From Planctomycetota bacterium (GTDB taxonomy: Bacteria; Planctomycetota; Phycisphaerae; WQYP01): a stretch of DNA of 64,000 nt. Location of the stretch: NCBI GenBank assembly GCA_021810145.1, contig JAJZJL010000002.1, positions 4,643 to 68,642 on the forward strand, in the 5' to 3' direction. The notes under the pieces are model-generated. The model searched no databases and was not told where the DNA came from. It saw only the letters and a list, made by a program, of their open reading frames with translations. Shown here piece by piece: positions 12,191 to 60,113 of this stretch (position 1 is the first letter of the stretch; each line of letters opens with the position of its first letter). A program made the position numbers and the translations under genes.

Positions 12191-13621
12191 ATGACTCAAA
12201 CCATTACCATTGACGGCGTTACCCGCATTGAAGGACATGCGAAAATAACGATCCATCTGGATGATGCCGGAAAAGTCCGCGATGCGCAGTTTCATGTGAC
12301 TCAATTCCGCGGATTTGAGAAATTTGTGGAAGGCCGGCCGCTGACCGAGATGCCTGGCATTATGGCTCGAATCTGCGGAATCTGTCCTGTCAGTCATCTG
12401 ATGGCGGCGGCCAAGGCGTGCGATGATATTCTGGCGGTCCAAATACCTCCCACGGCGAATAAACTTCGCCGGATAATGAATTTAGCGCAATTGGTGCAGA
12501 GCCACGCGCTATCGTTTTTCCATCTCTCGAGTCCGGATCTGCTTTTTGGTATGGACGGCGATCCCATGCGGCGCAATATCTTCGGGCTGATTCGAGAACA
12601 TCCGGATTTTGCGCGTGATGGCATACTGCTGCGCAAATTCGGACAGGATGTTATCGCCTTGCTGGGGGGAAAAAAAATTCACCCGGCCTGGGTGGTACCG
12701 GGCGGAGTCAATTCACCTCTGACGGAAGAAACCCGCGACGCGATTTTGAAAGAAATTCCCGCCGCCATCGCCCGTGTGGATCGGGCCTTGAATTATTTTC
12801 ATGAAATTGAAGATCACTACCCCGCCGAAGTCGATGCGTTCGCTAACTTCCCGACGCTATTTGCCGGACTGGTAACGCCTGAAGGCCTCCTGGAACATTA
12901 TGACGGAGCCTTGAAATTTGTCGATCACAACGCCACGCCGGTGGCGGAACTCAGCTTGAGCGATAGCAGCCATTATGGAACGCTTATCAGCGAAGCAGTT
13001 GAGAATTATTCATACCTCAAGTTCCCGTATTTCAAGCCCCGTGGATACCCTGCCGGAATTTACCGCGTGGGCCCGCTGGCGAGGCTGGTTGTGGCTGAAC
13101 GATGCGGTACCATACGAGCGGACATGGAATTAGGTGTCTTTCGCACGCGTCTGGGCCGGGCGCCTCAGAGCAGTTTTCATTATCACTGGGCGCGGCTCAT
13201 TGAAATTCTCTTTGGCATAGAAATGATACAGCGACTGCTGCAGTATCCGGATATTCTCAACACCCATATCCGTTCGCGTGCCAGACCCAATCGGCTTGAG
13301 GGCGTGGGTATTTCCGAGGCTCCACGCGGCACCCTGATTCACCATTATAAAATCGATGAAAATGGCCTGATCCGATGGGCCAACCTGATCATCGCCACCG
13401 GGCATAACAACCTGGCGATGAATCTGGGCGTGCGACAGGTTGCCGAGAGATTTGTCGATGGCAACAAACTGCAGGAAGGCATGCTCAATCGCGTGGAGGC
13501 GGTGATTCGCTGCTTTGATCCGTGCCTGAGCTGCTCCACCCACGCGCTGGGGCAAATGCCGCTGCGAATTGAACTTTGTAGGTCAGATGGCGAGGTGTGC
13601 GATGTGCTGCAACGAAACTGA
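12191..13621 (+). CDS. hoxH: [NiFe]-hydrogenase large subunit HoxH.
   Basis: N-terminal RIEGHAKI...[10 protein letters not shown] and C-terminal [12 protein letters not shown] Ni-binding motifs, plus a C-terminal tail as expected for protease processing. Confidence 0.92.
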
Positions 13622-37316: not shown

Positions 37317-37459
37317 TTCACACAAGCGTCAGGACAATCAACCGCTTAAGATGACCGGCACCGGCCCGCATAACACCCGTCGCACGCCATCCGGATTGCA
37401 ACCGGGATGGAAACCCGCGGCCGTTTTAACTTTGGCTTGACATCCATCATTTCCACGAT

Positions 37460-37487
37460 TTGAAATATTTGCCAACCGATGTATAAT
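37460..37487 (+). promoter_or_regulatory. Putative rpsA promoter: TTGAAA, 16-nt spacer, TG-TATAAT (extended -10).
   Basis: gatTTGAAAtatttgccaaccgaTGTATAATa, ~200 nt upstream of rpsA. It is preceded by the GGAAACCCGCGGCCGTTTTAACTTTGG-TTGACA motif. Confidence 0.45.
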
Positions 37488-37690
37488 ATTTGGCTTATTC
37501 ACGGTCTGATGAATTGTCTATGCCAGACATGCCCGAAGACTGCGATTAAACCCGGCAAGGCATCAGCCCGGGATTCGATTGGCATTGTAGCTGATTGAAT
37601 AATGTCTGGGCCGGTCTTTTTCGCCCGTCATTTCCGCTGCTTACACACTTTTTAACGGCGGTTGCAACGGGGAAAGGTTCCAAGTCGTTT

Positions 37691-44840: not shown

Positions 44841-44892
44841 GCGTTCATTATATAGCCAGCCAGAGAATCTGGCGAGAACCGACTATTTCATG

Positions 44893-44950
44893 CCAGGCCA
44901 AAGTTAAATTATCCATTACCTGACCAAAGTTAAATTGTCCTGCTTGGCGG
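44893..44950 (-). promoter_or_regulatory. Two direct repeats of AATTTAACTTTGG, 26 nt apart, in the lutA upstream region. The first is preceded by GGACAA.
   Basis: Reverse complement of 44893-44950 reads GGACAATTTAACTTTGGtcaggtaatggatAATTTAACTTTGGcc. The same motif family recurs at ~37420, ~50270, ~50901 and ~59990. Confidence 0.4.
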
Positions 44951-45150
44951 ACGCGTGCACGAGGCTTGTCGGGCCACCATGGCAAAACGCCTGCCATGCC
45001 GCGCGAAATAACGCAGGCGGCCGAGAATCCCAACCCGCGCCACTCCGCGCATAACTAACCGTGCATCTTTCGCAAGCCAGGCAACCTGAACCGGCTGATC
45101 CGCACCTTCAGTCCTTGCGTTTCCATCGCAAAACAAGTCCGCCGTAATAT

Positions 45151-46155
45151 TCATGCCTGCCGGAACTCGGGCAGTCCGGCTCGGCGTGCAATTTCTACGG
45201 CAAGATTCTTGAAATCTTCCCGCACGTTGCCAACCGCTTGCGTATGCGCGCCCAACGCTCCGTCAGCGGGCGTCAAATGGAACATCGGCTTCCGCGCCTC
45301 CTGTGCCAATGGCATAAGACTGCGGTAATCCTTTAGCTTGGCGATGCAGTTAGGATCATCCTCAATACCAACCACCCCCGCCCCCGTCTTCCCGAGCACG
45401 CTGTTTTCATAGGTGGCGGGAATCTTGGCGATCCAACGATCAAATGCCTGCACCGGCCGGTCCAGCCGGATAGAATGACGTATGACCATATATCCGATGG
45501 TTTTAATGAGCCCCTGTGGCAGTTCAACCGCGTTGTGCGGCTGCTTTGCCAATCGGTCCTGCCACTGCTGCCGCCATTCGCGAAGGGCCGGGCCGAGATT
45601 TTCCAGCCCCTGCAGAGAAAAAAGATCTGGCCCCAGGGGAATGACCACAAAGTCACAGCCTATCAGCGCCGCGCGATTGATTGCGCCCAGGTTAGGCCCA
45701 ACGTCCACAACAATGGATTTGGCCCCGAATCGCCGTGCGGCATTCTGCGTGATGCGCCAGAGCGCTGACACCACACGAAATGATCTTTCTCTACCATCCA
45801 GACATTTCGGCCAATCCTGCGCCAGTTCATCTTCGAAGCGCGAGAGCCTCATATCACCCGGAACAAGCGCCAGATTATCCGTAATGATTTCGTAATCGGG
45901 ATCCGCTATATCGCCGACCCCGTTGATCAGCGGTTCCAGACATTGGTAAACAGTGGATGCCCTTTCACTGTGCCAAAGCGTGGTCGCCAGGGTCTCTTCA
46001 TCAATGAACGCCGCGGTCAGATTACTCTGCGGATCAAGGTCCGCCGCCAGGACTTTCATCCCTGAATCGGAGAACATCCATGACAAATGATAAACCAGGG
46101 ATGTTTTACCGACCCCGCCCTTGTTGTTAAAAAAACCAATAACGGGAATACTCAT
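45151..46155 (-). CDS. ParA/MinD-family P-loop ATPase with a ~80-aa C-terminal extension.
   Basis: Deviant Walker A FNNKGGVGKTS, LDPQSNLT, and a hydrophobic Walker B (SIVVDVGPN). 334 aa. ATGA overlap with the upstream COG2865 gene. Confidence 0.75.
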   Translation of the reverse strand: MSIPVIGFFNNKGGVGKTSLVYHLSWMFSDSGMKVLAADLDPQSNLTAAFIDEETLATTLWHSERASTVYQCLEPLINGVGDIADPDYEIITDNLALVPGDMRLSRFEDELAQDWPKCLDGRERSFRVVSALWRITQNAARRFGAKSIVVDVGPNLGAINRAALIGCDFVVIPLGPDLFSLQGLENLGPALREWRQQWQDRLAKQPHNAVELPQGLIKTIGYMVIRHSIRLDRPVQAFDRWIAKIPATYENSVLGKTGAGVVGIEDDPNCIAKLKDYRSLMPLAQEARKPMFHLTPADGALGAHTQAVGNVREDFKNLAVEIARRAGLPEFRQA

Positions 46156-47348
46156 GAACGCTTCCTCAACACCACCGCAATGTGGAATTCTTCAACCTGA
46201 AAATCCGGTGAAGGATTGCCATTCCGTTCCATTTCCTGTCGGGCCTGCGCAATGCCGAACCCGAAGCGCTGCACATAACCCAGGTGCTTCATGGCCTCGG
46301 CGAGATAGCTGTTTCGGTAATCATTCGCCCCCGGACGACCAAAATTCTCCCGTGTGACGCGCCCAAATGGTCCGCCGGGGTTTTGAATCTCCACCCGGTC
46401 GGCAAACCACGTAATCCGGATCGGGGCGTTGGTCCCTTCATAACTGCGGTGCATGACCGCGTTTCTGGCAATTTGCTGCAATGCCACAAGCGGATAATCA
46501 GGCCGGCGGATCTCACGGTCGGCGGAAGTAAAGTCAATCGCGGTTTGAATGTTGATTTTCAGGAGTTCGTCGAGACTGTTCAGCAAGATCGGCAATGGAC
46601 CGCGGATTTCCCGGGAGTCAGAAATTGGATCGCCGATTTGTCCGCCGGCAATTCGAACAAACTGAATGTATGCACCTGGAATAAAGTCAGCAGGTTCGGT
46701 ACCGAGCACCAAAATCCCACAGTTAGTAGGGCGAACCGGCACTGGGGCGGCAGCAAGCCGAAGGGCCACGAGTTGCTCCTCCAGTGTCCGATGATTTTCA
46801 GCAAGCGTCTCCGGTGATATCGCCCGGGGCAGATAGACATCTCTGAACAGTTGTTTATCCAGATTCTCAAGCGTTGCCCTGTTTGCAGTTTGCAGATCGA
46901 ATGGCGTGTCCTTGAAGCGGCGCTTCTCCACCAGCAGGTGTTCCTGCTGCTGCGACGCGATGGCCAGGCGCGGACCGATGCGGACCCACGCTGTTCCACG
47001 ATAGCGCACCGGCGGAGCCTCCGCAGGCTCCACGACGATGACAGCCACATCCCGGCCGCCGAGCACTTTTTTCTGAACCGTTATGTGCGGCAGCGGCAGG
47101 ATATTGCCATCCGTGGCTGTATCGGCAAGTGTCAGCAGCAAACGTTCCGTTATCTCCAGTCCGGCCGATTGGCCATCATCCTCAACACCGATAAAGATCG
47201 CGCCGGGCTTTCTATGGTCGGGCAGGTCGTTGGCAAACGCGCAAAGTGTTTTGCGAATTCCATCCATGTTGGAAATATCCCGCTTCCGCTCCGCGCGGTC
47301 TGATTCCGTTTCAGCAAGCAGATTTTCAAGCTCGGCATCACTTAGCAT
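46152..47348 (-). CDS. COG2865-type protein: N-terminal AlbA_2 (Schlafen-like) domain plus C-terminal HATPase_c_4 domain.
   Basis: ERKRDISNMDGIRKTLCAFANDLPDH...GAIFIGVEDDG (AlbA_2), and REIRRPDYPLVALQQIARNAVMHRSYEG...IRITWFADRVEIQNPGGPFG (HATPase_c_4). Start at Met36 (47348) with an AAAGGTG RBS. The listed ORF over-extends to 47453. Confidence 0.75.
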   Translation of the reverse strand: MLSDAELENLLAETESDRAERKRDISNMDGIRKTLCAFANDLPDHRKPGAIFIGVEDDGQSAGLEITERLLLTLADTATDGNILPLPHITVQKKVLGGRDVAVIVVEPAEAPPVRYRGTAWVRIGPRLAIASQQQEHLLVEKRRFKDTPFDLQTANRATLENLDKQLFRDVYLPRAISPETLAENHRTLEEQLVALRLAAAPVPVRPTNCGILVLGTEPADFIPGAYIQFVRIAGGQIGDPISDSREIRGPLPILLNSLDELLKINIQTAIDFTSADREIRRPDYPLVALQQIARNAVMHRSYEGTNAPIRITWFADRVEIQNPGGPFGRVTRENFGRPGANDYRNSYLAEAMKHLGYVQRFGFGIAQARQEMERNGNPSPDFQVEEFHIAVVLRKRS

Positions 47349-47805
47349 TACAAACACCTTTGTGTTTTCCCGGTCCGTTCCTTTGGACCAGACCGGATTA
47401 TTGTGGCATTCTACAGGATAATGGCCCAACCGGCAGCAGGGCGACGCGTGCAACGGAGGAATGGTAATGTTTCCGCAAGTTCGCAGTCCCGATGCCTAAC
47501 GGGAGGAGGCATCCTATGGCCGTTCGTCGCGGACGCGAAGCCAATGTGACCGACGATTCCGTTCTTGATATCGGCCAATGCGTAAGGCGTCAGCCCCCCG
47601 CCGTTTGCCCGCCGCGTTAGTTGCCCCGTCCCCATTGCGACAATAATGTAAATGCCCAACCCGGCGATTGCGTGGCGCATCACACCGCGCTTCCCCAAAA
47701 AATCGCGCAAGCCTCGATAGCACCAAAGCGCAATTCCCGCAACTGGATGGCCGGAACAAGCACTTGTCCAATGACTGAAGACCGGGCCGGTGGAAATGTG
47801 CGGGT

Positions 47806-48816
47806 TTAAAATTGCTTAAGAAATCGGACGTCGTTTTCAAATAACAGGCGAATGTCTTCAATGCCATGCTTGCGCATGGCTATGCGTTCCACTCCCAGGC
47901 CGAAGGCAAATCCGGTGTATTTTTCCGGATCGATTTTCACGGTTTCAAGCACATTGGGATCAACCATGCCGCAGCCGCCAAGTTCCACCCATTTGGAACT
48001 TCCGTCCGCATAATGAAATCGCACATCAAATTCCGCACTCGGTTCGGTAAATGGAAAGAAACTCGGACGAAAGCGGGTTTCCACATCGGCACCAAAAAAG
48101 GCTTTGGCAAACTGATCAATGCACGTTTTCAGATCCACCATGGTAATATCTTCATCCACCACCAGGCCTTCAATCTGATGGAACATGAAACTATGCGTGG
48201 CGTCAACGGTATCCGGACGGTACACCCGTCCCGGGGCGATAATGCGTACCGGCGGCTTGTGCGTTTCCAGCACCCGTATCTGCACGGAACTGGTTTGCGA
48301 CCGGAGCATAAACGGAGCCGCGCCGGATGGTCGCTGCAGATAGAAATTATCCAGCGGATCGCGCGCCGGGTGGTGCCGCGGAACATTCAATGCCTCAAAA
48401 TTATGAAATTCATCTTCGAGTTCCGGGCCTTGCGCGATGGAGAAGCCCATGCGGCCGAATAATTCCGTCAGCGCATCAATGGTTTGATGAACAATATGCA
48501 AAGATCCGGGATGATAATCGCCAAATGTGATCCGCCCCGGTTCGGTAATATCAACCAGCACCTCGGCGGAACCGGCGCTTGAGCCCAGCCGGTCCTTGGC
48601 TGCATCATAACCGCTTTGAACGGCCTGTTTGACTGAATTTAATTTGGCACCGTAAGCGCGTTTCTGATCATTGGGAAGGCTTTTGAGTTGATCGCTGGCC
48701 ACCTTCAACAGGCCTTTGCTGCCAAGATATTTAATCCGGAAGGCCTCAATCTGATCAGCGCTGCTTAAGGAGGAAAGCTCCTGCTGTGCCTGGGCCAGTA
48801 ATTCATCAAGATTCAC
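47806..48816 (-). CDS. pheS: Phenylalanine--tRNA ligase alpha subunit.
   Basis: MNLDELLAQAQQEL...FRIKYLGSKG N-terminus, class II motifs (FRPSFFPFTEPSAEFDV, GCGMVDPNVL). Confidence 0.92.
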   Translation of the reverse strand: MNLDELLAQAQQELSSLSSADQIEAFRIKYLGSKGLLKVASDQLKSLPNDQKRAYGAKLNSVKQAVQSGYDAAKDRLGSSAGSAEVLVDITEPGRITFGDYHPGSLHIVHQTIDALTELFGRMGFSIAQGPELEDEFHNFEALNVPRHHPARDPLDNFYLQRPSGAAPFMLRSQTSSVQIRVLETHKPPVRIIAPGRVYRPDTVDATHSFMFHQIEGLVVDEDITMVDLKTCIDQFAKAFFGADVETRFRPSFFPFTEPSAEFDVRFHYADGSSKWVELGGCGMVDPNVLETVKIDPEKYTGFAFGLGVERIAMRKHGIEDIRLLFENDVRFLKQF

Positions 48817-49071
48817 GTTGAATTACTCCCGGAAAAAGGCACGTCTGTCCATTTTCAACACACCCGGCCGAACACCCTGCCGCTCAACCGTTCAGATGCC
48901 CCGTGTGTGTCTCCCCATCATAATCGCTTTACCGCCCCCGGTCCGGCGAATACCGCCCATTATCGCGCCTCCCTGACTGCGTTGATCGGATAACCCATCC
49001 GATCACCCCAGATCAGAAGCGCCACCCATACCGCATGCCGCCTGGAGAGATCACCCGCTGGTTAATTCGTT

Positions 49072-49440
49072 TCAGGCCGCCTTCAAACCCAGTGCATCGC
49101 GTACCTTGGCCACAATGGCGTCAAACGCGGCTGGATCGGCGATGGCAATTTCACTGAGGCTCTTGCGGTTAAGTTGAATATTGGCTTTGGCAAGTCCGGA
49201 AATAAGTTGGCTGTAACGCAAACCTCGGCTGCGCGCCGCGGCGGTCAGACGGGTAATCCAAAGAGCGCGATAATCGCGCTTCTTTTCCTTGCGGCCGCTG
49301 AACCGGTTGGCACCGGCCCGCAGCAGCGTTTCGTGCGCTGTTTTATACAGCTTGCTGCGTCCACCGACAAACCCCTTGGCGCGTTTCAGCAAACGTTTGT
49401 GCCGTTGTTTCCGGGCGGCACCGACTCTTACTCGTGGCAT
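49072..49440 (-). CDS. rplT: 50S ribosomal protein L20.
   Basis: MPRVRVGAARKQRHKRLLKRAKGFVGGRSKLYKTAHETLLRAG... matches L20. Confidence 0.92.
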   Translation of the reverse strand: MPRVRVGAARKQRHKRLLKRAKGFVGGRSKLYKTAHETLLRAGANRFSGRKEKKRDYRALWITRLTAAARSRGLRYSQLISGLAKANIQLNRKSLSEIAIADPAAFDAIVAKVRDALGLKAA

Positions 49441-49535
49441 GGTAAATTCCTCAACAAATTCTTCAGGTCTTCAATGTTCTATCACGTTGTCGCCCCGCCG
49501 CCGGAAAACAAACCACCGGCTGACGCGACCGATTC

Positions 49536-49739
49536 TTACCGACCCGCCGGGCCAAGCAACGTGATCATCTTATCCGCAAACGGGCCGCTGAGACTGGTCG
49601 TACCGCGCAAACGCCGCCGCCGATTACCGGACTTGGCACTCTGCAAATGCCCCTTATTGTGCTTATGGAATTTGACTTTTCCAGTCGCGGTCACTTTAAC
49701 CCGCTTTTTAATTCCCTTGTGTGTTTTATGCTTGGCCAC
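49536..49739 (-). CDS. rpmI: 50S ribosomal protein L35.
   Basis: (M)AKHKTHKGIKKRVKVTATGKVKFHKHNKGHLQSAKS... GTG start at 49739 with AGGAG 7 nt upstream. The listed ORF over-extends to 49769. Confidence 0.75.
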   Translation of the reverse strand: MAKHKTHKGIKKRVKVTATGKVKFHKHNKGHLQSAKSGNRRRRLRGTTSLSGPFADKMITLLGPAGR

Positions 49740-49970
49740 GCCAAAACTCCTAACCAAATCAACGCTCAAAGCTCCAATATTCGCCCGGCCTCACGACAAG
49801 CTGCGCCCATGACCCAAGCAAATCGAGCCACGTAGTATATTCGCTTGCCCCCTCGCCGTCCACTGCTTGATCTCCCCGGCTCATTTTCCAGCCACATAAC
49901 ACATTTTTCACCAATTCCAACCGCCAACTGGCGCCCGCCCGCGCCTGTCAACAGCGCTCCGTTGAGGCGC

Positions 49971-50098
49971 TACCCGCATTCCCGATCGTCATCGGGGCCG
50001 GAAACCCGTGGCCGTTTTCGGGAATCGCGCCATCAAAAACCTTCACGTCACGCCCGCGGCCAAGGGCCATGGGATTCCCTCCCGATAGCCATCGGGGC
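49971..50098 (+). repeat. Copy A of a ~127-bp structured direct repeat (paired with 51205-51329, ~80% identity).
   Basis: tacccgcattcccgatcgtcatcgggg..ggaaacccgtggccgttttcgggaat..ccatc..aac.ttcacgtcacgcccgc.gccaa.gg.catgggattcc.tcccgatagccatcggg. Contains internal hairpins (cccgat-N4-atcggg twice). Confidence 0.7.
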
Positions 50099-50428
50099 TG
50101 CATGGTGGCGCGATTGGACGAATAACAACAATCCACCATGGCAGGCGTCGCACGCTACCGCGCGACGGCCGCGCCCGGCATCCGCAACTGCGGGTGCAAA
50201 TCCCCGTCCGTTCTCGCGAATACAGCCTCGACGACGTTCACGACACCTCCGCGTCCTGGCAAGGAGAACCTTTTAACTTGGGTTAAACAGCGGACAACTT
50301 AACTTTGGCATGCCACTACCCGTTGACTTTGCGGACTCTTCGAGATATACAGCGATCATCTGATCTGCGAAATTGCTCGCCATGCGGCGTGGCTGGCCTT
50401 TGGATCGTCATGGGCATTGAGTCACTTT

Positions 50429-50848
50429 ATGAACAGCAACAGCAAAGTCGTTAAGGATTTCATCGATACAGTCCTCAATCGTGGGGACATCGATTCCTCA
50501 GGTCAGTTCTTTTGCGATGATATGGTCGAGCAGGTTCCACTACCCGGTCAGGGTCCCGGCCTGGAGGGGCTGAAGGATGTATTGCGCGGAATGCGCGCTG
50601 CGTTTCCGGACATGCACTGGACTATCGAGGAACAAATCTGTGAGGGCGATAAGGTGGTGACCCGCTTTGAGTGGACCGGCACCCACCGGGCGGAGTTTCT
50701 TGGCGTGCCCGCCACAGGTCGCCCCGTGAAGGCGTGGGGCATGGTCATTGACCGACTGGAGGATGGAAAAATCAAGGACACCCGGATTCTGATGGATGCG
50801 CTCGGATTGATGATGCAGCTTGGTGCCTTGCCGCGCCCGCAGTCCTGA
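50429..50848 (+). CDS. SnoaL-like / predicted ester cyclase (NTF2-like fold), 140 aa.
   Basis: KDFIDTVLNRGDIDSSGQFFCDDMVE...MRAAFPDMHWTIEEQICEGDKVVTRFEWTGTH...GRPVKAWGMVIDRLEDGKIKD fits the SnoaL/COG5485 pattern. ATG at 50429 (track start 50417 is TTG). Confidence 0.72.
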   Translation: MNSNSKVVKDFIDTVLNRGDIDSSGQFFCDDMVEQVPLPGQGPGLEGLKDVLRGMRAAFPDMHWTIEEQICEGDKVVTRFEWTGTHRAEFLGVPATGRPVKAWGMVIDRLEDGKIKDTRILMDALGLMMQLGALPRPQS

Positions 50849-51204
50849 GTGTGACGCCGCCCGACCGCTTGAGCCAACGGCGATTGCCCCTTGAGTTGAT
50901 GGACAATTCGCGTTATCAGGCGGCGACCTGATCTGCGGAACTGCTCGCCGGTCGGCGTGGCTCAGTTCCGCATCATTTGGCAGCATGCATATAACGGCGT
51001 CCATCCGCCAAGACATTCTCATTGAAGCCAGTCCGGCGCGAGCATTGGCCGTGGATTGGCAGGTTGCTCGTCTGCCGGAACCGATGGGCCGAATTTCCTA
51101 AAAGCCACACAGCTGCGTTTGAGTGCAAAAGCCGTCTCATGTCCGCTACTGAATCCAGAGCTATCCCCATCCCGTAACCATCAACAATCCGCCGTGGCAC
51201 GCAT

Positions 51205-51329
51205 TACCCGCATTCCCAATCTCAATCCGGGGGGGAAACCGTGGCCGTTTTCGCGAATGGGGCCATCGATAACATTCACGTCACGCCCGCTGCCAACGGT
51301 CATGGGATTCCTTCCCGATAGCCATCGGG
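51205..51329 (+). repeat. Copy B of the ~127-bp direct repeat.
   Basis: Column-by-column alignment with 49971-50098, offset ~1233 bp, same orientation. Both copies are intergenic. Confidence 0.7.
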
Positions 51330-51371
51330 AAGGAATGACGGCGTAAAGCTTCGATGAATTGTTTTCCGGCT

Positions 51372-53315
51372 TTACCCCGGCTGGCTGACGGGGCGATGGC
51401 GGCCTGATACGTAGACGGTCAGAACCATCAGATCGGCGGGGGTTATTCCTTCCAGGCGGGAAGCCTGCCCCATGGTGCGCGGACGAAATTTTTCCAGAGC
51501 TTGCCGGGCTTCAGCGCGCAGTTCCGCAATTGCCCGAAAATTCATATTCGGTGAAATGATCTTATCCTCCAATTCCGCCATGCGTTCGGCGGCATGTTTC
51601 TCACGGAGAATATATCCGGCGTATCGCGCTTCAATTTGAATCTGTTGCATCAGTATCTGCCGCGCCGGATCGGCCAGCAGTGCGGTCAATTGCGGTCCAT
51701 CAGGGCCGAGCATGGCCGGCAGAGCCGTCAGTTCCAGATCCGGGCGTCGCAGCAAATCCATGGCCGTACCACCCCCCGGCACACGCAAGGCTCTCATCTG
51801 TTGCGTCAACTGGCGCATGGCGGCGAGTTTATTTTCCAGGCGTTGAACGCGCGCCGGTTCCGCCAGGCCGAGTTCGGCGGCCAGCGGCGTAAGACGCTGG
51901 TCGGTGTTGTCGCTGCGCAACGTGAGCCGATATTCCGCGCGGCTGGTAAACATGCGATAGGGTTCGGTGGGGGTTTTGGTAATCAGGTCATCTATCATCA
52001 CGCCGATATAAGCCTGATCCCGCCGCAGCACAAACGGCCCCTGGGCGCGAATTTTCAGCGCGGCATTGATGCCTGCCATCAATCCCTGTCCCGCCGCTTC
52101 TTCATACCCGCTGGTGCCGTTGAGCTGTCCGGCAAAGAACAATCCATCGGCGCGATGGGTTTCCAGCGTGGCCCCGATTTGATGCGTGGGGGAAAAGTCA
52201 TATTCCACGGCATAACCGTGCCGCAGAATTACCGCTTTTTCCAGCCCCGCAACGCTGTGGACCATCCGCTCCTGCACATCCACGGGCAGAGACGTGGATA
52301 TGCCATTGCAGTAAATTTCATTGGTGTCCAGGCCTTCGGGTTCCAGAAAAATCTGGTGCTGGGTTTTGTCCGCAAAGCGCACCACTTTATCCTCAATGCT
52401 CGGGCAGTAGCGCGGGCCGCGACTGATAATCTGCCCGCTGTACATCGGTGCCCGGTGCAGATTGGCCCGGATCAGATCGTGAATGGCGGCATTGGTGTAG
52501 GTGATATGACACGGCACTTGCGCAAGGCCGGGAAACCGCGAGCCTAACGGCGCAGCGACGGTACCGGATAAATCACTGAACGGTATTGGCGGAACATCTC
52601 CATGCTGCGGTTCCAGCGATGAAAAATCCACCGTTTCCCGGGCCACGCGCGGCGGCGTGCCGGTTTTCAGCCGTTGCAATTCAAAGCCGAGCTTAATAAG
52701 CGCGCCGGATAATCCGACGGCGGCCTGTTCTCCCACCCGGCCACCTTCGGTTTTCTTTTCCCCGGTGTGCATGAGTCCGCGCAAAAATGTGCCGGTGGTA
52801 AGAATGGCGCAGCGGCAAGTCAATTTTCGACCGGATTTCAGTTCAATGCCGGTCACCCGCCATGCCGGCGCTTCATGATGGCCTGATGGGTCAACAAGTA
52901 TATCATCCGCAATGTCCGCGATGATTTGCAGATTGGGGCAGTGTTCCGTCAGCAGCCGCTGCACCGCCTGCGCGTAGCGGTATTTATCCGCTTGCGCACG
53001 CGGAGATTGCACCGCCGGACCTTTGGAACGATTCAGCAGACGAAACTGAATACCCGTGGCATCAATGGCATGAGCCATCAAGCCGCCAAGAGCGTCAATT
53101 TCGCGTACGATCTGGCCCTTGGCCAATCCGCCAATGGCGGGATTACAGCTCATGCGGCCAATGGCGGCGGGGTCCATGGTAATCATCGCCACGGTGCCAC
53201 GATCACCCAGCAGGCGCGATGCGGCCCACGCGGCTTCCGCACCGGCGTGGCCGCCGCCGACGACAACAATATCAAAATATGCAGCTTGATCGGTCATGCT
53301 TTGAAAATATTCCAT
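51372..53315 (-). CDS. mnmG: tRNA uridine-5-carboxymethylaminomethyl modification enzyme MnmG (GidA).
   Basis: FDIVVVGGGHAGAEAA FAD motif, conserved MnmG core and C-terminal helical domain. Start taken at MEYFQSM (53315). The track ORF extends to 53375. Confidence 0.92.
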   Translation of the reverse strand: MEYFQSMTDQAAYFDIVVVGGGHAGAEAAWAASRLLGDRGTVAMITMDPAAIGRMSCNPAIGGLAKGQIVREIDALGGLMAHAIDATGIQFRLLNRSKGPAVQSPRAQADKYRYAQAVQRLLTEHCPNLQIIADIADDILVDPSGHHEAPAWRVTGIELKSGRKLTCRCAILTTGTFLRGLMHTGEKKTEGGRVGEQAAVGLSGALIKLGFELQRLKTGTPPRVARETVDFSSLEPQHGDVPPIPFSDLSGTVAAPLGSRFPGLAQVPCHITYTNAAIHDLIRANLHRAPMYSGQIISRGPRYCPSIEDKVVRFADKTQHQIFLEPEGLDTNEIYCNGISTSLPVDVQERMVHSVAGLEKAVILRHGYAVEYDFSPTHQIGATLETHRADGLFFAGQLNGTSGYEEAAGQGLMAGINAALKIRAQGPFVLRRDQAYIGVMIDDLITKTPTEPYRMFTSRAEYRLTLRSDNTDQRLTPLAAELGLAEPARVQRLENKLAAMRQLTQQMRALRVPGGGTAMDLLRRPDLELTALPAMLGPDGPQLTALLADPARQILMQQIQIEARYAGYILREKHAAERMAELEDKIISPNMNFRAIAELRAEARQALEKFRPRTMGQASRLEGITPADLMVLTVYVSGRHRPVSQPG

Positions 53316-53404
53316 CCTGTCAAAACGGGACACCGTACCGGGCCATTTGGATTCCAATGCATGCACCGCACACACAACGGTTCAGCCTGGCCATTTGGCC
53401 CGCG

Positions 53405-54457
53405 TCAGCGTTGCGAAATCAAATCCGCTTCGCGCTGGCGTTGCGTGGCGCGATGCAAAATCCGCTTTTCCCTCCGTGTTAAACTGTGCATTCCCTTTTC
53501 GCTGACTTTTTCAAGAATTTTGTCCACCATCTGCTGCTCCTTCATGGCCCGATGATCGCGCCGGCTGATCCAATGCAGCCAGCGCTGCAGCAGCCGCTTG
53601 CGCTTGGGCGCCGGCAAATCGCTGATGTTGGCACTGGAGGAAATCAGTTGATCAATGATGCCGGGGCCATCCACCTGCAGTGCCCGGCGGCGCTGCAGCG
53701 AATCAAAAAACAGCAGGGCGAAAACCAGCATACCCATCAGATTCAGGCCGTAGGCGGACAGCGCAAACAGCGGCACCGCCACAACCATACCGGTAAGACA
53801 GGTAATGTCGACGGACTTGTAGGCACCGGTCATAGGCCAGAGAGTCGCCTGCAGCAGATAAGCGCCGTCAAACCAGTAAAACGGGAGCAGATTGATGGCA
53901 ACAAGAAAAATATTGGCCATGCAGAACATGTACAGCGCGGAGGCCAGAAAATTGGGTGCCAGGGACATGGCAATAAAATCGGGCTGCAACGGGCCGAACG
54001 CCGCTTCAAGAATCCGCGGTGTAACATGCCAACTGATATTGACGATGGTACCGACAAACATCGCGGCGATGGCGTTGGCCAGAATACCGCCGCCTTGCGC
54101 GGCAAACATGGGCCAGGCCGCCGGCGGGTGCATGGGCGGAATCATATTTCCCGCGGGCCACATAAGAAAATCGTCGTGCCGGCCGCCCACAAGCTGCGCG
54201 GTAATCCGGTGGCCGAATTCATGCACCAGAAGCGCCGCCAAAATACCCGCAATAGCCAGCACCGCCAGCACCAGCGCTCCGGTATGCAGCACATTAAGCA
54301 GCGTCAATGCCGCCAGCAGTATCAGCCAGAAATTCGCCTGTATGCGAATACCGAAGCAGGTCCCCAGCGGCAACGACCAGGTGAGAAGCGACCGCACACC
54401 GCCTCCGCCCCAGTTGTTCCCAAACCCACGGTTATAATCACGATCACGCCAACTCAT
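53405..54457 (-). CDS. M50-family (site-2-protease-like) membrane zinc metalloprotease with a charged C-terminal cytoplasmic extension.
   Basis: HEFGH zinc motif within a TM helix, multiple TM segments, C-terminal Arg/Lys/Glu-rich ~100-aa tail. Confidence 0.72.
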   Translation of the reverse strand: MSWRDRDYNRGFGNNWGGGGVRSLLTWSLPLGTCFGIRIQANFWLILLAALTLLNVLHTGALVLAVLAIAGILAALLVHEFGHRITAQLVGGRHDDFLMWPAGNMIPPMHPPAAWPMFAAQGGGILANAIAAMFVGTIVNISWHVTPRILEAAFGPLQPDFIAMSLAPNFLASALYMFCMANIFLVAINLLPFYWFDGAYLLQATLWPMTGAYKSVDITCLTGMVVAVPLFALSAYGLNLMGMLVFALLFFDSLQRRRALQVDGPGIIDQLISSSANISDLPAPKRKRLLQRWLHWISRRDHRAMKEQQMVDKILEKVSEKGMHSLTRREKRILHRATQRQREADLISQR

Positions 54458-54498
54458 ACACGCTACACGCTTTCATTCTGGCACATTCAGGCCGGCTC

Positions 54499-55068
54499 TT
54501 ATACGCCGGACCCGTTCCTTATTAAGTATTTTAACACAACGGCAATCGTTTTTCCGTCCACAATTTCGTTCGATGCGATCATCTGAAGGATTTTGTCCGG
54601 GGCGATGGGTTCCACGGTGATGGTTTCGTTTTCTTCCAGGGCCTGCGGGCCGGGGGTTAAACCGGCGGCGATAAAGGCATACATTTTTTCCGTCAGAATG
54701 CCCGGTGAGGTATAAAACCAGCCAAAAGGCTGAATATCGCCAGCCTGATAGCCGGTTTCCTCAATAAGTTCACGGCCGGCGCAAAGTTCGGGCGGTTCGG
54801 GTGGTTCAAGCGTACCGGCGGGCAGTTCCCAAAGCCATTGGCCCACGGTATGCCGCAGGTTGCGGATCATGACAATTCTGCCATCTTTCAGCACGGGCAA
54901 AATAATCACAGCGCCGGGATGCACCACCACTTCCCGCACCAGATGCTTGCCGGAGGCGGTGGTAACATTTCGCAGAGCCATATCCACCCGCGTGCCTTTG
55001 TAAACAATCTGGTCATTGGAACTTCCGGGCGATTGCACATTCATGATATTGATCCTTTCGTGATACAT
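54499..55068 (-). CDS. NUDIX hydrolase (ADP-ribose pyrophosphatase-like).
   Basis: Nudix box GTLEPPEPPELCAGRELIEETGY (GX5EX7REUXEEXGU). The start may be the internal Met at 55044. Confidence 0.75.
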   Translation of the reverse strand: MYHERINIMNVQSPGSSNDQIVYKGTRVDMALRNVTTASGKHLVREVVVHPGAVIILPVLKDGRIVMIRNLRHTVGQWLWELPAGTLEPPEPPELCAGRELIEETGYQAGDIQPFGWFYTSPGILTEKMYAFIAAGLTPGPQALEENETITVEPIAPDKILQMIASNEIVDGKTIAVVLKYLIRNGSGV

Positions 55069-55109
55069 TTCATGACACTTCCATTGCGGCGATCATATAA
55101 TAGCAGAGT

Positions 55110-56711
55110 ATGGTACCAATTTCCGACAACCATGAACCGGAATTGCCGCCGCCAGATACGGACTTTGACGAACAAATTGTCGAGGAAGTGCCGACCGGCG
55201 AAGTTACGCTTCCCCTGCCGACCGAGCCAACCGAAGCGCGGTTAAGCCGCCTGCACAGCAAAGCGCGGGCGCTGGATCAGATTCCGGGCGTTTATCTGCT
55301 TAAAGATACCCGGGATGTGGTCATTTATGTTGGCAAATCGCGCTCTCTGCGGGATCGCGTCAGCAGTTATTTTCTCGCCAGTACGGACCTGGGGCCTGTT
55401 AAACAGCGATTGCTGGATTATGTGGTCGATTTTGACACACTGACCTGCGATTCAGAAGTCGAAGCGCTGCTGATGGAAAGCCGATTGATTAAAGATCTGC
55501 ATCCGCGATTCAACGCCCGGCTTTCCGATGGCAAAAGCTATCCGTATCTGGAAATTACCACGCGTGAAGATTTCCCCGGTGTATATGTCACACGCAAGCC
55601 GCAAACCAGCGGCACCAAACTGTATGGCCCGTTTATCAGCGGGTATGCCCTCAAACAGGCACTGATTTACATGCAGCGCGCGTTTAAATTTCGCACCTGT
55701 CATCTGGAAATTTATGCCGACGATCAAAAGCGCCGCCACTTTCGCCCATGCCTGCTGTATGCCATCAAACAGTGTACGGCACCATGCGCGGACAAAATCA
55801 GCCGGGAGCAATATGCCCGTGATATGGATCGATTTAAGCATTTTCTGGAGTCCCGCCGGGGTGACGCGTTAAAGCAGATGACCGCGGAAATGGAAGCGGC
55901 TTCAGCGGCGCTGGAATTTGAAACCGCGGCACAGTTACGGGATCAGATCAAGGCGTTAAGATCTCTGTCGCATCGCGGAAAAAGTGCCAAGGTGATGCAG
56001 CCGGAATTGTTCTTCCCGGATCATCAGGCCGGTTCGCGGCAACTGCAGGAAGTGCTGGAACTCGACGAACCGGTGCGTTCCATGGAGGCCATCGACATCG
56101 CCCATTTTCAGGGTGAAGCAACGGTCGGGTCGCTGGTGTGTTTTATGGATGGCCGGCCATTTAAGGATGGCTACAAACGCTTTCGCATTAAAACGGTAAC
56201 CGGTATTGATGATTTCCGGTGCATCGCGGAGGTGGTTTCCCGGCGCTACCGGGAGGCGGGGCAGGGCAACGAGTTGTTCCCGGATGTGATACTCATTGAC
56301 GGCGGCCTGGGCCAGCTTCATGCCGCGCAGGGGGCCTTTGCGCAAATGGATGTCAAACCGCCGATGGTCATCAGTCTGGCCAAGCGTGAAGAAGAAATAT
56401 ATATGCAGGGTCGCCCGATGCCCTTTAAGCTTTCCCGCACCAGCGCCGCACTGAAGCTTTTACAATTTGCCCGGGATGAAGCCCACCGCTTTGCCCAGAG
56501 TTATCATCACCTGTTAATTGCCCGGCGGCAATTTCAGGATACTCTGCGCGGCAGCAAGGGCAAAATAAAAGCCAAACGCCGAACCAAATCGAAAGCGGCT
56601 TCCGCCGGTTCATCCGGAGAACCCGCGGAAACTGCATCGAATGAATTCAAAGTGATCCAAGCGCAAGACATCGCCGCCTTGCCCCCCAAACCCGGCATGA
56701 AGACACCCTGA
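55110..56711 (+). CDS. uvrC: Excinuclease ABC subunit C-like protein: GIY-YIG, UvrBC-interaction and RNase-H-like endonuclease domains. Apparently lacks the C-terminal (HhH)2 domain.
   Basis: GIY-YIG (IPGVYLLKDTRDVVIYVGKSRSLRDRVSSYF), UvrB-interacting helix (LEFETAAQLRDQIKALR) and a downstream UvrC endonuclease region. 533 aa versus ~600 aa in canonical UvrC. The tail is Lys/Ser-rich and low-complexity. Confidence 0.78.
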   Translation: MVPISDNHEPELPPPDTDFDEQIVEEVPTGEVTLPLPTEPTEARLSRLHSKARALDQIPGVYLLKDTRDVVIYVGKSRSLRDRVSSYFLASTDLGPVKQRLLDYVVDFDTLTCDSEVEALLMESRLIKDLHPRFNARLSDGKSYPYLEITTREDFPGVYVTRKPQTSGTKLYGPFISGYALKQALIYMQRAFKFRTCHLEIYADDQKRRHFRPCLLYAIKQCTAPCADKISREQYARDMDRFKHFLESRRGDALKQMTAEMEAASAALEFETAAQLRDQIKALRSLSHRGKSAKVMQPELFFPDHQAGSRQLQEVLELDEPVRSMEAIDIAHFQGEATVGSLVCFMDGRPFKDGYKRFRIKTVTGIDDFRCIAEVVSRRYREAGQGNELFPDVILIDGGLGQLHAAQGAFAQMDVKPPMVISLAKREEEIYMQGRPMPFKLSRTSAALKLLQFARDEAHRFAQSYHHLLIARRQFQDTLRGSKGKIKAKRRTKSKAASAGSSGEPAETASNEFKVIQAQDIAALPPKPGMKTP

Positions 56712-56763
56712 GCCTGAAGCGATGCGCGGATGGTTCTTGGCGTGAAGCGGCATCGCGGCTATC

Positions 56764-59733
56764 ATGCGACGGGTGATGACTGAACGACACATTGCACTAC
56801 CGGTTATGGTGGATGCCACATTGGACGCCGCGGATATGGCTGCGGCGCTGCGGCAACTGGATGTCGGCGAATTGCGATTATCCGGCCATGACCGTCTTTT
56901 ATATGCGACCGACGCCTCGCTGTATCAGGTTATGCCGCTGGGCGTGGTGATTCCCGATTCCGCCACGCACATTGCAACACTGCTGGAATTTTGCCGCAGA
57001 CAACGCATTGCCGTGTTGCCGCGGGGCGGCGGCACGAGCCTGGCGGGCCAATGTACCAACCGGGCATTGGTGCTGGATTTATCACCCCGATTCCGCGGCG
57101 TGGAACAAGTCGATATTCCCGGACGAACATGTGTGGCCCAGGCTGGAATAACCATTGACCAGATCAACAGCCATCTGGCGGCAAGCGGACTATTTTTCGC
57201 TCCGGATCCGGCCACCGTGGCGCAGGCCGCGCTGGGAGGGTGCATTGGCAATAATGCCGCCGGGGCACGGTCGATCCGGTATGGCCGCACCAGCGAAAAT
57301 CTTGACGCTCTGCACGTGGTGCTCACCGACGGGCAGGAGCTTTGGCTGGAAGCCGGCGCGGGGCGGCGCAATGCCGTTGCACTGAAACTCGCACAGCGGG
57401 TGGCGGATGTGGTCCGGAAATATGCCGCTGAAATCCGCGATCGATACCCGAAACTCATTCGCCGCAACGCCGGATATTCGCTGGATCTGATCCTGCGGCA
57501 ATTGGATGCCGGCACAACGCCGGAGGATTTGAATCTTACTGGTCTGCTGTGCGGCAGTGAAGGCTCGCTGGCGGTGATCACAGCGGCACGGTTGAAACTC
57601 CAGCCGATTCCCGCGGCGCGGGGTCTGGCTATTCTGGCGTTTGACAGTCTGGAGCAGGCGCTGGATCGGCTGCTGCCAATTTTAGATACGCAACCCAGTG
57701 CCGTGGAACTGCTGGACGCGGTGGTACTGCAGGCGGCGCAGGGAAATGCCGAAGCGCGGCGGCAGTTGGAAGTTATGCCGCTGATCAACGGGCAACTGCC
57801 GGCGGCGGTGCTGTATGTTGAATATCAGGCGGAACATTCCGATCGGGAACTTGACACATCTCTGGCGCATCCGGCGCTACAGGCTCCGGCGGCGCGGATA
57901 TTCCGGCAACCAACGGAAATGCTGCGCGCCTGGGCACTGCGCAAGAGTACCGAAGCGCTTCTGCACGCGGTATCAACCACCCGCAAACCCATTACCTTCG
58001 TGGAAGATAATGCCATTCCGGTGGCGCGCCTGGCGGAATTTATCGGCCGGTTTAAGGCGATTATCGAAGCACGCGGCACCACCGCCGCCTATTACGCCCA
58101 CGCTTCGGTGGGCGTATTGCATCTGCGTCCGATGCTTAATCTGCATGATCCCGCTGATCAGCAGGCCATGCGGGAAATTGCTCTGGAAACCGCCCGACTG
58201 GCACGCGACTGCGGCGGCGTGATGTCGGGGGAACATGGTGACGGGCGGGTACGCGGGCCGCTGCTGGAGGAATATTTCGGACCGGAAATCATGCGAGCCT
58301 TTGCCGAAATCAAGGCGATATTCGATCCCGCGGGAATCTTGAATCCCGGCATGATTGTCAACACCGGTCCGGTGGAATCCATCACCTCGCATCTGCGCCA
58401 GGAAGCGCAACGGAAAACACTTCACATAGACACTGCAACATATTTTGATTACTCAGATCAGGAATCTTTCACCGGCGCGGTGGAAATGTGCAATGGCTCG
58501 GGCTTTTGCCGTAAAACATCCGGGGGAACCATGTGCCCGTCCTATCGGGCCACCCTGGATGAACGACATTCACCCCGGGGAAGAGCCAACGCCTTGCGCG
58601 CCAGCATTCTGGCCACGTCGGATCATCCCAACTGGACCGATGCCGCAACGCTGGAAACCCTTGATTTATGCCTGTCCTGCAAGGCCTGTAAAACCGAATG
58701 CCCCAGCAGCGTGGATATTGCCCGGCTCAAAGCGGAATACATGGCCCAGCGCTACCGAGAAATCGGTCCGTCGCTGGCCAGCCGCATGTTCGGCCATGTG
58801 CGGACGCTTAACAAATTTGGCGCACTGATGCCGACGTTGGCCAATCGGGTGCAGTCGATCTCACCCGTGCGAGCCATGATGAACCGGCTGTTGAACCTGG
58901 CACCACAACGCCAGTTGCCCGAGTTTTCCACAGCGTTGACCACGTTGTTTGACAAGGGCCTGATGCAAGCCAACCCCGCCACTGGCCCCAGAGTGGTACT
59001 GTTTGCGGACTGCTTTACGAATTACAATGAATCGCATATTGGCGTGTCCGCCACGCGGGTGTTGCAGCGGCTTGGCTATCGGGTGGAAATCTCTGGCCGC
59101 GGGTGCTGCGGAAGAGCGATGATTTCCAACGGATTGCTGCGCAGCGGCCGGGATACAATCCGCGATACGCTGTCTCTGCTGACACCCGCCATTATGGATC
59201 AGCAGGTTCTCGCGATTGTTGTCTGCGAGCCATCCTGCCTCAGTGCCATGGTCGATGATTGGCAGCATTTCAACGACATTGGCCCGTCTGACGTACTGAA
59301 ACAATTGGCCCGGAAAGCCATTTCGCCAACCGATTTTGTGCAGCAGCGGTGGAGCGATCATCCTGTGCCACCCGCGTTAAAACCGCAAACAGCCGGACCG
59401 GTATTGTTTCATGGCCATTGCCATGCCAAAGCCCTCTGGGGAACCGGAAAGGATGCCGATTTATTACAGCGCCTGACCGATGGCAAAGCGACAATCCTGC
59501 CCACCGGCTGTTGCGGCATGGCCGGGGGATTTGGCTATATGCGCAATCATTATGAATTATCCATGAGGATTTTTGGCCAGAAAGAATTTGATCCCATTCG
59601 CGAGGCGTCAGATCAAACGGTCATTCTTGCCCCCGGCACGTCGTGCCGGCATCAGATTCAACATGCCACTGATCACCCGGCTCTGCACCCCGTGCAATGG
59701 CTGGCGGAATTATTAGACGACGGTTCACATTAG
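56764..59733 (+). CDS. YdiJ-like FAD-binding and Fe-S cluster-binding 2-hydroxyacid (D-lactate/D-2-hydroxyglutarate) dehydrogenase (GlcD-GlcF fusion architecture).
   Basis: 989 aa. N-terminal FAD-linked oxidase domain (VLPRGGGTSLAGQ), central 4Fe-4S motifs (CNGSGFCRKTSGGTMCP; CLSCKACKTECP), C-terminal tandem CCG domains (CCGRA...; GCCGMAGGFG). Confidence 0.85.
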   Translation: MRRVMTERHIALPVMVDATLDAADMAAALRQLDVGELRLSGHDRLLYATDASLYQVMPLGVVIPDSATHIATLLEFCRRQRIAVLPRGGGTSLAGQCTNRALVLDLSPRFRGVEQVDIPGRTCVAQAGITIDQINSHLAASGLFFAPDPATVAQAALGGCIGNNAAGARSIRYGRTSENLDALHVVLTDGQELWLEAGAGRRNAVALKLAQRVADVVRKYAAEIRDRYPKLIRRNAGYSLDLILRQLDAGTTPEDLNLTGLLCGSEGSLAVITAARLKLQPIPAARGLAILAFDSLEQALDRLLPILDTQPSAVELLDAVVLQAAQGNAEARRQLEVMPLINGQLPAAVLYVEYQAEHSDRELDTSLAHPALQAPAARIFRQPTEMLRAWALRKSTEALLHAVSTTRKPITFVEDNAIPVARLAEFIGRFKAIIEARGTTAAYYAHASVGVLHLRPMLNLHDPADQQAMREIALETARLARDCGGVMSGEHGDGRVRGPLLEEYFGPEIMRAFAEIKAIFDPAGILNPGMIVNTGPVESITSHLRQEAQRKTLHIDTATYFDYSDQESFTGAVEMCNGSGFCRKTSGGTMCPSYRATLDERHSPRGRANALRASILATSDHPNWTDAATLETLDLCLSCKACKTECPSSVDIARLKAEYMAQRYREIGPSLASRMFGHVRTLNKFGALMPTLANRVQSISPVRAMMNRLLNLAPQRQLPEFSTALTTLFDKGLMQANPATGPRVVLFADCFTNYNESHIGVSATRVLQRLGYRVEISGRGCCGRAMISNGLLRSGRDTIRDTLSLLTPAIMDQQVLAIVVCEPSCLSAMVDDWQHFNDIGPSDVLKQLARKAISPTDFVQQRWSDHPVPPALKPQTAGPVLFHGHCHAKALWGTGKDADLLQRLTDGKATILPTGCCGMAGGFGYMRNHYELSMRIFGQKEFDPIREASDQTVILAPGTSCRHQIQHATDHPALHPVQWLAELLDDGSH

Positions 59734-60113
59734 ACATATGCTCAAATACCGGGTAATTGCATTCGTCCGGCGCGGGAAATAGTCCAATTGCGAATTCACT
59801 TTCCTCAGACGGGCGACCGATGTAAATCCCCGGACGGTCCGGTTATTTAAGCAGCCCTGCCTGGCATAACTGCAAATGAAATGTGGCAGATCGACCGCTG
59901 CTCTTTCCATGGGTCGCGGTCCAGCGGAATGGCCGGCTGGCAGCATAACCCCGCAAGCCCGCCACGCCCCGTCGCGTCAGGCGGGACGCTTTAACTTGGG
60001 TTAAGTGACGGACAATTTCGCTTTCGCCTGACACAGCTTTTGCACAACTTGTAATTTTACGGGGGTTTTATATACTAGCGGGTCTGGAATGAACCTGAAT
60101 TGGAGTTTGGATT

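Follow-up and report, generated by a model that had tools for sequence, protein, structure and literature searches.

A stretch of 64,000 nucleotides (nt) from a Planctomycetota bacterium belonging to the Phycisphaerae (assembly GCA_021810145.1, contig JAJZJL010000002.1, positions 4,643 to 68,642 of the forward strand), referred to here as the window, carries a family of short intergenic repeats that share one architecture, one orientation relative to the downstream gene and, with one exception, one distance to the predicted promoter. The family has a restricted distribution and is unevenly conserved along its length, with two 17-bp cores better preserved than the sequence around them. The preferred reading, to which a probability of about 0.45 is assigned, is that the element is a lineage-restricted dispersed repeat serving as a portable upstream promoter module with two putative protein-binding sites in direct repeat. 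It is probably not an ancient operator of a conserved regulon. Positions below are those of the window, in which position 1 is the first letter.

Recurrence and anatomy of the repeat

The decamer TTAACTTKGG occurs six times without mismatch in the window (37426+, 44898-, 44924-, 50273+, 50299+ and 59991+), compared with 0.15 matches expected in 64 kb, and none of 100 shuffled sequences reached six. The full 17-mer GGACAATTTAACTTTGG, with up to three mismatches allowed, was also matched six times in the window against 0.11 expected. A position-weight scan of the window separated seven units, scoring 21-30 bits, from the next best sequence at 12 bits, and a profile of the units searched with nhmmer recovered the same copies (E <= 1e-3). 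The seven units lie at four sites, upstream of rpsA, lutA, a SnoaL-like gene and rpmB:

37419-37435, + strand: unit D2, upstream of rpsA
44940-44924, - strand: unit A1, upstream of lutA
44914-44898, - strand: unit A2, upstream of lutA
50266-50282, + strand: unit B1, upstream of the SnoaL-like gene
50292-50308, + strand: unit B2, upstream of the SnoaL-like gene
59984-60000, + strand: unit C1, upstream of rpmB
60010-60026, + strand: unit C2, upstream of rpmB

Every one of these units is intergenic in a window that is 86% coding, and the element occupies 4 of 26 gaps between genes, all within 37-60 kb. With the single copy found elsewhere (contig L026, described below), all five copies are intergenic and point toward the gene downstream. 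Sites A, B and C each have two directly oriented units, spaced by exactly 26 nt.

The original prediction had proposed that related AT-rich motifs recur upstream of genes, and this recurrence is real and far above chance by both the match counts and the weight-matrix scan; the 26-nt spacing that it described at lutA holds there and likewise at the SnoaL and rpmB sites. The interval 44893-60035 that had been given for the family does not include the rpsA site, and a fifth proposed site at 50901-50915 (GGACAATTCGCGTT) is not a copy, since it falls within the duplicate of the SnoaL promoter region described below (50880-50962) and aligns with the promoter spacer GGACTCTTCG and not with a unit. 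The palindrome TTAAC-N4-GTTAA, which had been put forward as a property of the motif, is exact in B1 and C1 and only there; when mismatches are allowed it is found four times against 2.6 expected, which is not an enrichment.

A full copy spans approximately 58-68 bp and consists of a weakly conserved left flank, two 26-bp units in tandem and, at the end, the heptamer CYTGNCA; a unit is 17 bp of core (GGACAATTTAACTTTGG) plus 9 bp of spacer. The copies in the window are composed as follows:

44891..44955, - strand: copy A, upstream of lutA; left flank 44955-44941, A1 (GGACAATTTAACTTTGG), spacer 44923-44915, A2 (GGATAATTTAACTTTGG), CCTGGCA 44897-44891
50258..50315, + strand: copy B, upstream of the SnoaL-like gene; left flank TGGCAAGGA, B1 (GAACCTTTTAACTTGGG), spacer 50283-50291, B2 (GGACAACTTAACTTTGG), CATGCCA 50309-50315
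59967..60033, + strand: copy C, upstream of rpmB; left flank, C1 (GGACGCTTTAACTTGGG), spacer 60001-60009, degenerate C2 (GGACAATTTCGCTTTCG), CCTGACA 60027-60033
37374..37442, + strand: copy D, upstream of rpsA, with a single unit; fragment of repeat family X 37374-37427 joined to D2 (GGCCGTTTTAACTTTGG), CTTGACA 37436-37442

Copies A, B and C align over 59-68 nt with 71-75% identity (blastn); copy A is 74-75% identical to copies B and C over 59-66 nt, and copy C is 71% identical to copy B over 68 nt. Conservation is unequal along the element: among the four two-unit copies the pairwise identity, counted by hand, is 83% in unit 1, 85% in unit 2 and 76% in the heptamer, but drops to 57% in the left flank and 52% in the spacer. 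The second units are followed by the heptamers CTTGACA, CCTGGCA, CATGCCA and CCTGACA, beyond which the sequences diverge completely, and on the left side similarity fades gradually and merges into a second repeat family, X. Inverted repeats bracket the copies and differ from copy to copy yet remain complementary (GCCAAG/CCTGGC, TGGCA/TGCCA, GTCAGGCG/CGCCTGAC and GGCAA/TTGCC). Folding of the element was no better than that of shuffled sequences on either strand (z -1.8 to +0.5), and the 26-nt repeat was not reported by Tandem Repeats Finder, its score being too low.

In the window the octamer GGACAAYT occurs at 15 sites against 4.1 expected; four of these lie in motif units and the rest are mostly intragenic.

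Promoter position and distribution

Each copy is followed by a predicted or conserved sigma-70-type promoter. The best such promoter was taken at four of the five copies, while that of the SnoaL-like gene was read by eye because the promoter scan omits it, its second hexamer lacking the final T:

37460..37487, + strand: rpsA core promoter, TTGAAA-16-TATAAT, 11/12 matches; 17 nt past copy D
44847..44875, - strand: lutA core promoter, TCGCCA-17-TATAAT; 15 nt past copy A
60049..60076, + strand: predicted rpmB promoter, TTGTAA-16-TATACT; 15 nt past copy C
from 843 on contig L026: L026 promoter, TTGACA-17-TGAAAT; 16 nt past the copy
50323..50351, + strand: likely SnoaL core promoter, TTGACT-17-TATACA, read by eye; 7 nt past copy B

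Counted from the terminal CA, the -35 hexamer follows after 15-17 nt in four of the five copies, and only the SnoaL copy differs, at 7 nt. In the same four copies the units centre near -67 and -93 relative to the predicted transcription starts. The core promoters themselves belong to the host loci: that of rpsA is conserved in relatives with RpsA 97, 95 and 93% identical, and a TAnAAT box 6-7 nt before the ATG of lutA is also present in five relatives with LutA 76-89% identical. The -10 box of lutA ends 6 nt before the ATG at 44840, and because of this close placement, shared with the relatives, the lutA mRNA is probably leaderless.

Upstream of rpsA there is a deiodinase-like gene; ParA-like and Schlafen/AlbA_2 genes precede lutABC, a large FAD/Fe-S oxidase gene precedes rpmB, and the SnoaL-like gene is divergent from rpmI-rplT-pheS; at four copies the upstream gene is co-directional. 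No co-oriented copy was found at the rpmI-rplT, pheS, aspS, pyk or mnmG promoters in the window.

The two-unit pattern was scanned over Genome Taxonomy Database (GTDB) species genomes and Joint Genome Institute (JGI) metagenomes. Among the genomes there were 24 matches, all of which apart from L026 were due to chance or to unrelated coding sequence, and the source species was not among them; none of the 25 metagenome matches was related. A scan of viral contigs with the 17-mer gave 29 matches, all by chance in AT-rich coding DNA, and BLAST against plasmid and phage records gave no match to the element. The one true copy outside the window is at 777-826 of JAKAEC010000092.1 (L026), a 5-kb contig of a metagenome-assembled genome (MAG) with a GC content of 0.58. 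It reads GGACATTTTAACTTTGG-CTAAGCAGC-GGACAATTTAACTTTGG-CTTGCCA, is nearly identical to the window copies and lies upstream of an SNF2/DUF3883 helicase gene. In its first third this helicase shows 80-94% identity among Planctomycetota, Lentisphaerae, Acidobacteria and others, and a close homologue on another contig (L090) is found within a defence-type island.

Nine related Phycisphaerae loci (six lutA and three rpsA loci, approximately 190 kb, with LutA 76-89% and RpsA 93-97% identical) contained no significant copy and none of 17 bits or more. At rpsA and lutA in these relatives the core promoters are conserved, with no clear copy upstream.

Breakpoints between strains or contigs coincide with the edges of the element. 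A JGI contig from a strain of the same species (L005) matches the window as far as 50257, and its divergence sets in precisely where copy B has its left edge (50257/50258); its positions 1-61 hold 61 nt of unrelated sequence in place of copy B, after which the contig ends, and no empty site was seen. A sister contig (L091) begins 3 nt past unit 2.

The collection scans also brought up a conserved string in Selenomonadaceae genomes (TTTAACTTTGGCTGACARRTGGATAATTTCCCGC, eight records), which seems to belong to a conserved gene and to have no relation to the element.

Neighbouring repeats and genes

Family X has a length of approximately 165-200 nt and is present at 49930-50140, 51163-51371 and, inverted, 47455-47640, with fragments at 37374-37427 and 50150-50265. 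Two of the copies are 80% identical and the third is 68% identical. On one strand the full copies contain a CCCGAT-N4-ATCGGG hairpin and a GGGAGG Shine-Dalgarno sequence, together with an ATG that begins a frame of 34-40 amino acids (MA[LV]GRGRDV.V.DG...), which is annotated as a gene in MAGs. No Rfam match to the family and no convincing covariation among the three copies were found, and outside its own clade's clusters the peptide matched only a related 47-amino-acid peptide and one repeat protein. Fragments of X adjoin copies D and B, and X-like sequence lies to the left of A and B; because fragments adjoin these copies, X and the motif family share modules. Other assemblies of the source species break inside the first X copy, one of them starting at the equivalent of 50103.

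Two X copies, 1233 nt apart, flank the SnoaL gene. The core promoter and 5' leader of this gene (50312-50394) are duplicated at 50880-50962, over 83 nt with 71% identity, just past the SnoaL stop codon and with no obvious gene behind the second promoter copy. Together with the flanking X copies, this duplicate suggests that a small gene unit was duplicated in tandem and then decayed.

The rpsA 5' untranslated region (UTR) of approximately 200 nt (37495-37690; 9800-10000 in relatives L094-L096) retains several blocks among relatives (among them CAGCCCGGGATTC, GATGTAGC, CCGTCATTTCCGC and GGAGAAAGGTTTCAGGTCGTTTATG). It matched nothing in Rfam at E up to 1 and is a candidate leader for S1 autoregulation. 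Between pheS and copy A, on the minus strand at 45151-47453, a two-gene module encodes a ParA-like ATPase (AAA_31/CbiA) and a Schlafen/AlbA_2-HATPase_c_4 protein. The pair is present upstream of lutA in none of the six related lutA loci and looks like accessory or mobile cargo. The whole window contains no tRNA gene. Exact protein matches assign the window to a set of near-identical MAGs (GCA_0274286xx/0274287xx, JGI 3300010386), which the names of homologues mark as Phycisphaerae.

Alternative readings and known systems

The copies are taken to derive from one sequence, and not from operators that evolved separately, because their similarity runs through the spacer and flanks over 59-68 nt; the heterogeneity of the target genes and the lack of positional conservation in relatives likewise argue for copying. 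Since the cores are conserved above the spacer and flank, a DNA-binding protein with sequence specificity presumably recognises the copies, or did so until recently, and acts on the promoter downstream; the fixed orientation and the 15-17 bp offset support this. Under the preferred reading the module would have been carried to its present positions by mobilisation or recombination. The copies would have been retained there because their two direct-repeat cores are putative binding sites for the DNA-binding protein, which would influence the promoter downstream from a location resembling that of class I sites. Protein binding, an effect on transcription and the mode by which the copies spread are inferred.

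Several points weigh against the portable-module reading. The family comprises five known copies in all, counting the window and one contig; copy B breaks the spacing rule, and the transcription starts from which positions were counted are predictions. Mobility is unproven, as there is no transposase gene in the window, the inverted flanks are imperfect and only 5-8 bp long, and no target-site duplication was seen at the edges of copies A, B, C or L026. The higher identity of the cores might also stem from constraint acting on a source element and not on the inserted copies. The orthologous intergenic DNA of the related species aligns only within approximately 120 nt of the gene, and for this reason the absence of the element from relatives is weak evidence of recent gain. 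In relative L095 (RpsA 95% identical), GGATATTTTAACGTGGACGTGACA, the best match in the related loci, lies 55 nt upstream of tRNA-Ala(CGC) at 13095-13121, with a non-significant score of 7.3 bits (E = 1.7), and GATATGTTAACGTGG lies upstream of rpsA at 9716-9732; a TTAACGTGG also precedes rpsA there. These sequences may be diverged relatives of the motif family and may mark an older, conserved regulatory site.

The L095 sequences would fit a classical regulon, in which one transcription factor would have the 17-bp cores as its operators, evolved or kept in place at its targets, namely translation genes and lactate use. Such a regulon would also account for cores conserved above spacers, for the fixed orientation and the -67/-93 position, and for the presence of two ribosomal protein genes among the targets. 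It is nevertheless considered unlikely, because similarity also extends across spacer and flanks, the targets have no function in common and one of them is a horizontally transferred helicase, the rpmI-rplT, pheS, aspS and pyk promoters have no co-oriented copy, no significant copy precedes rpsA or lutA in the nine relatives, and the L095 match itself falls short of significance. The same observations bear on the suggestion, made when the motif was first noticed, of a global promoter-proximal element or a binding site for a global regulator of highly expressed genes. The promoter-proximal part stands, the element being strand-specific and regularly placed (15, 15, 16 and 17 bp from the -35 hexamer). 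A global regulator of highly expressed genes is not supported, with targets as heterogeneous as rpsA, rpmB, lutABC, the SnoaL-like gene and the defence-type helicase of L026, with other translation and housekeeping promoters (mnmG included) that have no co-oriented copy, and with relatives whose conserved rpsA and lutA core promoters have no clear copy in front.

The copies could also be functionless, decaying relics of a mobile element, either a repeat similar to a MITE (a miniature transposable element with inverted repeats) or the end of an insertion sequence (IS) or transposon with two transposase-binding repeats and a terminal CA, found between genes because insertions are tolerated there. 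The sharp 3' boundary ending in CA agrees with this, as do the variable 5' extent (the single unit and X fragment of D, the X-like sequence left of A and B), the short flanking inverted repeats that differ between copies and remain complementary, the breakpoints at element edges, and the location of one copy beside a horizontally spread defence island. A relic is rated as rather improbable, since there are no target-site duplications, no paired inverted copies, no transposase gene in the window and no similarity to plasmid or phage records, and since tolerated random insertion would not be expected to give a constant 15-17 bp to the -35 hexamer and a uniform orientation. A bolder form of the portable-module reading is held to be doubtful. 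In it the element would be a mobile module that activates from upstream and either seeks out promoters or is favoured there by selection: a two-operator cassette, landing with its 3' CA approximately 16 bp before the -35 of resident sigma-70 promoters, would bring these genes, and also new acquisitions like the helicase operon of L026, under the control of one lineage-specific DNA-binding protein. An element acting as RNA or single-stranded DNA, whether an attC-like or repetitive extragenic palindromic (REP) hairpin, a 3' UTR or terminator, or a 5' leader, is very improbable. B1 and C1 do read RYYYAAC-N4-GTTRRRY, as integron core sites do, the flanks are able to pair, a weak terminator-like hairpin was flagged at 59974-59989, and the upstream gene is co-directional in four copies; but the folding results largely refute it, Rfam gave no match even at E = 1, the element stands upstream of conserved promoters, no integrase was found, and essential genes lie between the copies.

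Comparison with described regulatory sequences agreed with the original prediction, which could match the motif to no known consensus, that of sigma-54 included; the sigma-54, Bacteroidota-type, Crp/Fnr-type palindrome, attC, DnaA-box cluster and Rfam models were all without a fit. The pattern TGGCAC-N5-TTGCW with up to two mismatches was found 28 times against 46 expected, and a near match in register follows copy C only (60029-60044, with GA in place of GG). As separate observations, sigma-54-like strings lie beside copies A and C (TGGCAGGCGTTTTGCC at 44996-44981 on the minus strand, and TGACACAGCTTTTGCA at 60029-60044 on the plus strand with one mismatch, in the invariant GG), and relative L095 encodes RpoN. 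For the Bacteroidota-type promoter (-33 TTTG / -7 TAnnTTTG), TAACTTTG fits, but TAnnTTTG occurs 17 times in the window against 24.5 expected, and the promoters at the sites of this Phycisphaerae host are ordinary TTGACA/TATAAT-like ones. A promoter formed by the two units themselves, on either strand, was judged by eye to be too weak (TTAACT/TAATTT or TTGTCC/TAAATT) and not to fall on the best-conserved positions.

Class I activator sites and tandem operators of Crp/Fnr-type regulators offer a partly similar arrangement, with the PrfA box, for example, reading TTAACANNTGTTAA. The TTAAC-N4-GTTAA of B1 and C1 shares half-sites and spacing with this box, and a position before the -35 is typical of class I. 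Unlike such operators, seven of the nine units are without a second half-site, and the unit is asymmetric (GGAC-N3-TTTAAC-TTKGG) and directly repeated at a spacing of 26 bp, which places the two units on opposite faces of the helix. A palindromic operator was rejected, as the palindrome is exact in two of the nine units, has four of five half-site bases in one more and is absent from every second unit. Crp/Fnr sites are expected to centre near -41.5 in class II and, in class I, near -61.5 or at multiples of 10-11 bp from it; the centres here fall near -67 and -93 relative to predicted starts. The A/T-rich block (AATTTAACTTT) before ribosomal protein promoters recalls UP elements, which differ in lying at -38 to -59 and not at approximately -58 to -100, and in sequence; the block is also absent from the same promoters in sister species. 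Integron attC sites were rejected on folding no better than shuffles, on core-like heptamers placed 4 nt apart inside the unit and not at its ends, and on the essential genes pheS, rplT and rpmI between copies. Rfam 15 gave no gathering-score match in the whole window and none at E up to 1 around the sites. A replication origin beside mnmG was rejected because DnaA boxes are not clustered near the sites. Tn7 TnsB sites, LytTR repeats, the H-NS nucleation motif, and IHF, Fis, CtrA and LysR boxes do not seem to fit in spacing or sequence. In the literature the sequence strings matched primers only, and nothing relevant on Planctomycetes promoters was found.

Of the kinds already described, putative mobile promoters and promoter-bearing MITEs come nearest. 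Putative mobile promoters have been defined as sequences of at least 50 nt with at least 80% identity, located upstream of non-homologous genes whose own upstream genes are non-homologous (Matus-Garcia et al. 2012, PMC3488235). The present family resembles them in having 50-100 nt of homology before non-homologous genes in one genome and on the contig of a second organism. It differs in that its identity of 71-75% is below the 80% cut-off, so that its members would rank as a "diverged copy" in that scheme (PMC3488235), and in that the element lies upstream of the core promoter and excludes it, the -35 and -10 hexamers belonging to the host locus and being conserved in relatives without the element. 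Correia elements of Neisseria and promoter-bearing MITEs (PMC2649163, PMC10969869) are likewise small intergenic repeats adjacent to genes with an internal protein-binding site, which in the present element is putative, and the -35-like terminal sequence (TTGACA in copy D) and the association with points of rearrangement are further likenesses. Unlike these, the repeat has a direct tandem repeat inside and not a long terminal inverted repeat (the inverted flanks being 5-8 bp), no TA or other target duplication and no predicted hairpin or RNase III type structure, and all copies face one way.

Almost nothing is known of the promoter architecture and transcription factors of Phycisphaerae and other Planctomycetota, and the element is a dispersed intergenic repeat or mobile promoter module from a phylum in which no such elements had been described previously. 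Even if it were only a repeat relic, it would still help to mark where these MAGs are rearranged or their assembly breaks. If it is bound by a regulator, two copies of GGACAATTTAACTTTGG at 26 bp would provide a concrete bait for finding the protein and the element would exemplify regulatory rewiring through copied operator pairs, and if the mobile activating module is true, transcription would have been rewired in this lineage by moving pairs of operators rather than whole promoters.

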